The position numbers and the translations under genes are program-made. Of a stretch of DNA of 64,000 nucleotides, positions 47,250 through 47,722 are shown one piece after another (positions within the stretch are counted from its first letter, which is position 1; each line of letters opens with the position of its first letter). Under the pieces are notes generated by a model. It was not told the DNA's origin. It was given only the letters and a program-made list of their open reading frames with translations, and made no database searches. The stretch comes from Octopus vulgaris (lineage: Eukaryota), in the NCBI GenBank assembly GCA_951406725.2, contig OX597818.1, positions 117,552,001 through 117,616,000 of the forward strand, given 5' to 3'.

Positions 47250-47722
47250 ATATATGAAAAAACAAGTCAAAAATAGAAAATAAAGATAATTTTATAGTGA
47301 ATCTTTCAGTACCGGTTTCGGTCATTTTGAGACCTTTTCAACTGTAACGATTAAATAATTAAATTTAGAAAAATTAGAAGAAAAGTTTTTTTAAAAGAAT
47401 ATTTCTGTAGTAGTGTTCAGATATAAGTAGCATTCTGCCTTTCTCTGACTCCCTTGTTTGCACTTGTGTGTTCGAGGTCGTTTTCTGTGTCGACCTCGAA
47501 CACACAAGTACAAACAAGGAGTCAGAGAAAGGTAGAATGCTACTTATATCTGAACACTACTATAGAAATATTCTTTTAAAAAAACTTTCCTTCTAATTTT
47601 TCTAAATTTAATTATTTAATCGTTACAGTTGAAAAGGTCTCAAAAATGACCGAAACCGGTACTGAAAGATTCACTATAAAATTATCTTAGCATTTTCTAT
47701 TTTTGACTTGTTTTTTTATATA
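47250..47722. mobile_element. Long palindrome (arms ~230 bp, 10-nt spacer 47481-47490), Penelope-like inverted pseudo-LTR in (TA)n
   Basis: 47491-47722 is the reverse complement of 47250-47480. There is a hammerhead motif in each arm. Confidence 0.9.
47626..47664 (+). ncRNA. Minimal type-I hammerhead with U3:A8 variant core; mirror copy 47307-47344 on minus
   Basis: cag-TTGAAAA-ggtc-tcaaaaat-gacc-GAAA-ccgg-TA-ctg. Perfect stems I and II, palindromic stem III ACCGGT, GUA triplet. Confidence 0.75.

Follow-up and report, generated by a model that had tools for sequence, protein, structure and literature searches.

A U3-A8 hammerhead motif in a truncated, inverted Penelope-like insertion of the Octopus vulgaris genome, predicted to be inert at this locus

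Introduction

Type I hammerhead motifs located in the pseudo-LTRs of Penelope-like elements (PLEs) have been described for Cercyon of Schistosoma mansoni (Cervera and de la Pena 2014, PMC4209133), where U3-A8 covariation was reported that had been missed by the first descriptor used, with about 1300 hits. The heptamers UUGAAAA and UUGAUAA given in the supplement of that work are those of the two octopus families examined here, and close opposite-strand pairs of motifs lying 100-700 bp apart were also reported for Cercyon. PLE hammerheads are reported by the same source to cleave poorly in vitro, and minimal PLE hammerheads are described as usually lacking a tertiary contact between loop I and loop II (PMC6155905). 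Natural covariation from C3-G8 to U3-A8, with activity in vitro, was reported by Perreault et al. (2011, PMC3088659) for hammerheads that were not from octopus and that, in the accessible parts of the paper, were not quantified per genome. The statement of the original prediction that this substitution retains activity is in keeping with these reports from in vitro work and from nature. The presence of U3-A8 in Penelope hammerheads is already published (PMC4209133) and is not a new idea.

PLEs of the Neptune/Nematis type are described as encoding a reverse transcriptase (RT), a CX2-5CxxC linker and a GIY-YIG endonuclease (EN), as does the parent of the octopus family, and as sharing pseudo-LTRs, an inverted 5'-truncated copy, a tail of 30-40 nt at one end and microsatellite targets (Craig et al. 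2021, 10.1101/2021.04.23.441226, PMC8557442). The octopus parent differs from these in having a separate ORF1 of 411 aa, although the legend to Fig. 1 of that work permits a frameshifted ORF1 in some PLE types. For PAc (Poseidon) of Anolis, studied in vitro, both target strands are reported to be nicked and extended from two reverse transcription start sites that bracket the tail, with the hammerhead lying upstream of these sites and uncleaved RNA serving as template (Frangieh et al. 2024, PMC11167929). In this reconstituted system the hammerhead was reported to need protein and to be dispensable for insertion in vitro (PMC11167929). PAc has a canonical C3-G8 core and starts reverse transcription at sites without homology to the target (PMC11167929), whereas both end sites of the octopus family are AT-rich and resemble its (TA)n target.

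In comparison with what is reported for Cercyon, the octopus family possesses a 4-nt palindrome (ACCGGU) in stem III, A at H17, and a stem II of 4 bp without a bulged base after A9, while variant cores make up about half of the motifs in the octopus genome and include a G3-C8 family. No account of octopus hammerhead cores was found by literature search in the accessible parts of the sources, with octopus not among the hosts found there. For G3-C8, the search found laboratory mutants only, which does not establish its absence from print.

Results

Layout of the palindrome

The palindrome at 47250..47722 of the window (the whole 64,000-nucleotide stretch of O. vulgaris DNA that was analysed) was found to be made up of two inverted arms set between (TA)n tracts (Table 1), these arms being 98% complementary over their longest ungapped piece. 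The arm is a young repeat, with 1502 candidates identified in the genome (2.8 Gb, 227 contigs searched), most of which were 94-98% identical among the 40 scored. Both arms of the palindrome carry private changes. As they are 97-99% identical to hundreds of copies, the locus is regarded as a recent insertion, and nothing points to constraint acting on this locus in particular. The layout of non-LTR retrozymes (head-to-tail tandem units of 200-400 nt, each with a hammerhead) was absent at the palindrome, which is an inverted pair without tandem units.

Table 1. Features of the palindrome and of the sequence on either side of it, given as positions in the window
Feature	Position	Strand	Details
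(TA)n microsatellite, left flank	47134..47217	.	target site
Tail of the Penelope-like element	47218..47247	-	30 nt; left arm only
Left arm	47218..47484	-	3' pseudo-LTR and tail; 98.9% identical to parent L033 (blastn)
Left-arm type I hammerhead motif, U3-A8 core	47307..47344	-	descriptor scan and Rfam; core 47341-47335; GAAA 47319-47316; palindromic ACCGGU; predicted cut after A17 at 47310
Linker between the two truncated ends	47485..47490	.	6 nt; unmatched to the element by blastn
Right arm	47491..47717	+	inverted 5'-truncated pseudo-LTR copy without tail; 97% identical to parent
Right-arm type I hammerhead motif, U3-A8 core	47626..47664	+	descriptor scan and Rfam; core 47629-47635; stem II 47636-47651; GAAA 47652-47655; palindromic ACCGGU; predicted cut after A17 at 47661
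(TA)n microsatellite, right flank	47718..47811	.	

The hammerhead motif of the two arms

By descriptor scan, the motif of the right arm was found to read cag (47626-47628), UUGAAAA, ggtc-tcaaaaat-gacc, GAAA, ccgg, UA (47660-47661) and ctg, with that of the left arm being the same save for the loss of one A in loop II. The sequence description given in the original prediction (a UUGAAAA core with GAAA and UA in both arms) was therefore exact. Both arms possess the 5' core N3-U4-G5-A6-N7-N8-A9 with a Watson-Crick pair at 3-8, the canonical letters C3 and G8 being replaced by U3 and A8, as well as G12, A13, A14 and A15.1 (GAAA) and U16.1-H17 (in a GUA triplet). The predicted fold contains a stem I of 3 contiguous bp and a stem II of 4 bp (P of the 10.1-11.1 pair 0.98). 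Covariation was identified in stem II, where G-C is replaced by A-U at 10.1-11.1 in a sister subfamily, while none was seen in stem I.

The Rfam model Hammerhead_HH9 aligned to both arms over its full length (E 0.0013 and 0.0025), with scores of 23.8 and 22.9 bits that lie below the gathering score of 52 bits, so that a search relying on this threshold misses both arms. When the whole window was searched with Rfam, matches to microsatellites and miRNAs dominated among the best 150 of 485. The fold energy of the monomer was no better than that of shuffled sequences (z -0.55 to -0.72). The palindrome carries a real type I hammerhead motif of the published U3-A8 variant. The insertion that holds it is a truncated Penelope copy of ordinary kind, predicted from RNA modelling to be inert.

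The parent Penelope-like element

In the parent element (locus L033) the arm occurs as two direct copies separated by about 4.35 kb and as an inverted third copy upstream, and the motif is situated about 55-90 nt before the end of each direct pseudo-LTR in the parent family. Between the direct copies lies an ORF of 762 aa with matches to RT (PF00078, E 3e-8) and GIY-YIG (E 0.005) and with a CxxxxCxxC linker. The GIY-YIG match (PF01541) was obtained for three of the four proteins scanned with E values of 0.0006-0.005, below Pfam's cut-off, and the CX2-5CxxC linker between RT and EN was present (CGRPNCGIC in protein P0001). Judged by domain order, the parent is an endonuclease-bearing PLE of Zn-linker type, with Neptune/Nematis as its putative clade. 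The Penelope-like origin claimed for the palindrome was upheld by the RT and GIY-YIG domains of the parent, by its pseudo-LTRs and by the 97-99% identity of the window arms to L033. Further traits of EN-bearing PLEs, namely pseudo-LTRs, an inverted 5'-truncated copy, a one-sided tail and a microsatellite target, were all present at the locus or in its parent. Contigs from four runs presumed to be RNA covered 29-30 of the 30 bins of the parent element, contigs being uninformative as to strand, ends or cleavage.

ORF1 and the RT ORF do not form a single ORF, being offset by -1 in all six copies examined. ORF1 of the parent (411 aa, L033:5380-4145, minus strand) matched no Pfam family. It overlaps the RT ORF (L033:4208-1920, minus strand) at the heptamer U UUU UUA, which lies in the frame needed for a -1 shift, and its stop comes 12 codons further on; this arrangement was found in 6/6 copies. 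The only nearby ATG of the RT ORF was private to one copy, and no stimulatory hairpin was predicted after the slippery site (-2.1 kcal/mol). The overlap can be considered a candidate programmed frameshift.

U3-A8 across the family

A 30-nt pattern of the family with positions 3, 7 and 8 left free gave 1904 matches in the genome and none when reversed as a control. U3-A8 was found in 1895 of these matches (five lacked U3 and five lacked A8, with one common to both sets) and C3-G8 in one. U3-A8 is thus the family consensus, as had been proposed, and not the decay of a copy; a canonical CUGANGA consensus, the outcome named beforehand as counting against the original prediction, was looked for and is excluded by the same counts. 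A looser pattern gave 3447 matches, and the first 100 listed all possessed U3-A8. Among those first 100 listed were eight exact copies of an older sister form, in which A10.1-U11.1 replaces G-C and loop II is shorter; one sister-form copy was 74% identical in its flanks. U3-A8 has been inherited from source elements and is common to this older subfamily with its compensatory change in stem II, while the uniformity of U3-A8 inside the family is the result of recent copying and not of selection. The motif was also covered by contigs of four further runs (four organism codes, of uncertain run type, one possibly being the assembly's own sample), for which the listing gave no alternative letter at position 3 or 8 at a 5% share, in weak support of this consensus.

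A single copy of the family was identified with a canonical C3-G8 pair (L161:5807-5776, G000:C13:524784). Its aligned pseudo-LTR differs from the subfamily copies L163 and L165 only at positions 3 and 8 and at one other base. From the counts of single changes, about 0.006 double changes of this type would be expected, this being one copy that was noticed post hoc. It may derive from a source element that had reverted and did not last, or it may be artefactual.

Variant cores in the genome

To determine how frequent variant cores are, a structural descriptor that left positions 3 and 8 unconstrained was applied to 122 evenly spaced pieces of 10 kb each (1.22 Mb). This gave 36 motifs, namely 19 with C3-G8, 12 with U3-A8, four with G3-C8 and one unpaired, so that 35 of 36 possessed a Watson-Crick pair at 3/8. 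Twenty local dinucleotide shuffles gave 1.3 motifs in all, with 0.2 of U3-A8 type per 1.22 Mb compared to the 12 real ones. Seven of the 19 canonical motifs belong to one tandem array; counted by piece, the four classes numbered 10, 10, 4 and 1, respectively. Clustering by flanks of 39 motifs (sample and window) resolved eight multi-copy families, of which four were C-G, three U-A and one G-C.

Genome-wide patterns with a 4-nt insert in stem III gave 11077 matches for UUGANAA (control 255), 1486 for CUGANGA (control 99) and 567 for the unpaired CUGANAA (control 155), while the canonical core with a CG insert gave 18495 (control 716); a strict comparison between these patterns is not warranted, and certain classes, such as U3-A8 with a 2-nt insert, are not covered by them. 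A non-standard core pair appears to be present in roughly half of this genome's hammerhead motifs. The suggestion that CUGANGA searches undercount hammerheads is supported for this genome, as the shuffle-controlled sample and the genome patterns both put the non-canonical share near half. A census using CUGANGA only would miss about half of the motifs here (16 of the 35 sample motifs with a paired core; approximately 17,000 variant compared to approximately 20,000 canonical pattern matches genome-wide).

The G3-C8 family (GUGAACA, with a stem I of 7 bp and U17) gave 6685 pattern matches, 94 of the first 100 listed being G3-C8. Its loci include L095:8285-8250 (minus strand) and L204 (G000:C4:22952000-22961999); in the latter, a 777-aa ORF with distant RT similarity (RT/GIY-YIG-like) is flanked by direct copies of the motif, one on either side. 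No Pfam family was matched by two ORFs of the G3-C8 element. This is a young Penelope-like family.

Tandem arrays of retrozyme-like form, with units of about 355-377 nt and a hammerhead in each, were also identified (L081:2278-4542 and L113:8638-9434). The former carries C3-G8 and the latter U3-A8; loop II is similar in the two, and their stems I-III covary.

Formation of the palindrome and predicted behaviour of its motifs

With a probability of about 0.8, the palindrome is a truncated and mirror-doubled terminal-repeat insertion of a PLE, bearing a family-wide U3-A8 motif that would be a slow dimer cleaver in full-length RNA, while the present copy is locked in a hairpin and inert. For its formation, the endonuclease of the element would nick both (TA)n strands, each target strand would prime reverse transcription at one of two AT-rich sites bracketing the tail, and the two short cDNAs would join at their truncated ends, resulting in an inverted pair with a tail on one side only. 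Twin priming of this kind is suggested by structure only. Among 16 hand-picked inverted-pair loci, both arms were matched in 14; 13 of these were tail/no-tail pairs by exact match, and the 14th differed by a one-base variant of the tail only. This pattern matches what has been described for PLEs (10.1101/2021.04.23.441226) and fits the pair of start sites and the nicking of both strands reported for PAc in vitro (PMC11167929). Since each arm continues beyond the predicted cut site, the RNA that served as template would have been uncleaved, or re-ligated, at the motif.

In the full element, the motifs of the 5' and 3' pseudo-LTRs are predicted to pair through ACCGGU, which is self-complementary in stem III, and so to form a double hammerhead that would trim read-through RNA to unit length, with pairing of U3 to A17 predicted to compete with U3-A8 and to slow the cut. 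The predicted motif dimer showed the topology of a double hammerhead (-27.1 kcal/mol compared to 2 x -9.8 kcal/mol), which on the model's terms agrees with the claim that the palindromic stem III is compatible with dimeric folding. The role in unit-length processing is put forward as a hypothesis, since PLE hammerheads are poor cleavers and are dispensable for insertion in vitro.

The arms in the window cannot act as dimer partners in cis due to their lying on opposite strands. A transcript through both arms is predicted to form a hairpin of about 230 bp (-351.6 kcal/mol), in which the probability of stem II is about 1e-16 and 99.9% of core bases are paired. On this prediction the palindrome copy would be trapped in a long hairpin and inert, although a transcript initiating inside the palindrome would evade the hairpin. 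The description of the motif as an apparently intact hammerhead consequently holds for its letters, present in both arms, but not for a working ribozyme at this locus, where the opposite-strand arms are predicted to pair with each other.

Pairing of U3 with A17

Position H17 is A in this family, and a U3-A17 pair was predicted in the monomer fold with a probability of 0.71. A C3-G17 pair is the usual explanation of the NUH rule, with G17 variants reported to be 8- to 100-fold slower (PMC3884650). By analogy to this trap, U3-A17 may slow the ribozyme of the octopus family, an A-U pair being weaker than C-G in that analogy. Slow cleavage would be of use to an element that needs its template to remain whole. 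None of the 12 U3-A8 motifs in the 1.22-Mb sample possessed A17; a rule by which U3-A8 motifs avoid A17 was nevertheless rejected, as other U3-A8 sequence types with A17 are present in the genome listing.

A broader idea is tentative and on balance doubtful. It holds that three core pairs (C3-G8, U3-A8 and G3-C8) occur in young co-existing Penelope families, with about half of at least 40,000 motifs non-canonical, that the letters at positions 3, 8 and 17 set the speed of cleavage, and that U3 with A17 is a brake kept over about 25% divergence so that the RNA survives to be translated and copied. If true, those families would form a naturally occurring set in which the function of Penelope hammerheads could be tested. 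Young families that differ in the 3-8 pair and in H17 are ready-made contrasts. The U3-A8 variant itself and the palindrome locus are ordinary; what is added here is that about half of the genome motifs are non-canonical at 3/8, together with the U3-A17 brake as a testable idea.

Alternative explanations

It is improbable, though the best placed of the alternatives, that the motif is a dead relic throughout the family, silenced by U3-A8, U3-A17 pairing and a 3-bp stem I and persisting by descent or as a protein-binding structure. The predicted strength of the U3-A17 pair would fit such a loss, as would the 8- to 100-fold reduction in rate caused by the analogous C3-G17 trap (PMC3884650), the report that hammerhead mutants leave insertion in vitro unaffected (PMC11167929) and the report that Naiad PLEs thrive without a hammerhead (10.1101/2021.04.23.441226). 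Against a relic, the core and stems have been kept in a sister subfamily whose flanks are only about 74% identical, with the compensatory change of G-C to A-U in stem II. Positions 3/8 are moreover Watson-Crick across at least eight multi-copy families, and other U3-A8 types with A17 exist.

That the palindrome itself serves as a ribozyme locus, whether active or exapted (cleaving host transcripts, for instance, or seeding dsRNA or small RNA), is very unlikely. Both of its motifs are intact, and transcription of its near-perfect hairpin of about 230 bp would yield a dsRNA substrate; against this, the close identity to hundreds of copies marks a recent insertion, the arms carry private changes and a hammerhead fold is excluded in the modelled read-through RNA. 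Least probable is a chance match in AT-rich DNA that was multiplied by the repeat. UUGAAAA and GAAA are indeed AT-rich words and the fold energy of the monomer is unremarkable, but the motif sits in the pseudo-LTR of an element with RT and GIY-YIG and aligns to HH9 over the full length of the model, and this reading was refuted by the shuffle control of the sample (0.2 against 12) and by the genome-wide control (255 against 11077).

Other motifs in the window

The original prediction put the window's content at about a dozen motifs, belonging to six or more repeat families. This count was not borne out, with nine copies of four families being identified, three of them intact by descriptor, using 69 query motifs, a set for which families outside it and heavily decayed copies could be missed. 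A second palindrome (window 23539-24111, motifs 23709-23941) belongs to a family with 1937 candidates that are 90-95% identical. The UUGAUAA heptamer claimed for this palindrome was present, but its core was not intact and is regarded as broken, as GAAA is changed to GGAA in both arms. Among 13 motifs of this family matched in 28 other loci, GAAA was found in 12 and U3-A8 in all 13. The two U3-A8 families of the window are unrelated in sequence and independent, as had been proposed.

A canonical minimal hammerhead (CUGACGA ... GAAA cg UU) belonging to a very abundant repeat adjoins the first palindrome at 47940-47966 (minus strand), with two decayed copies of the same repeat at 26969 and about 27116. 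CUGANGA ... GAAA words at 55947 and 45973 (both plus strand) resemble decayed motifs and failed the stem tests. Further inverted repeats were located at 52811-53014, 31747-31967, 37253-37400, 45567-45683, 11286-13082 and 20182-21836; no intact hammerhead was found in these, which are probably other truncated retroelement insertions. Decayed copies of another family with a canonical core (CUGAUGA aggctgg...) were identified at about 4018 and about 31695 (both minus strand). Lastly, an 18-nt unit was found three times in tandem at 48384-48440, within a GC-richer stretch.
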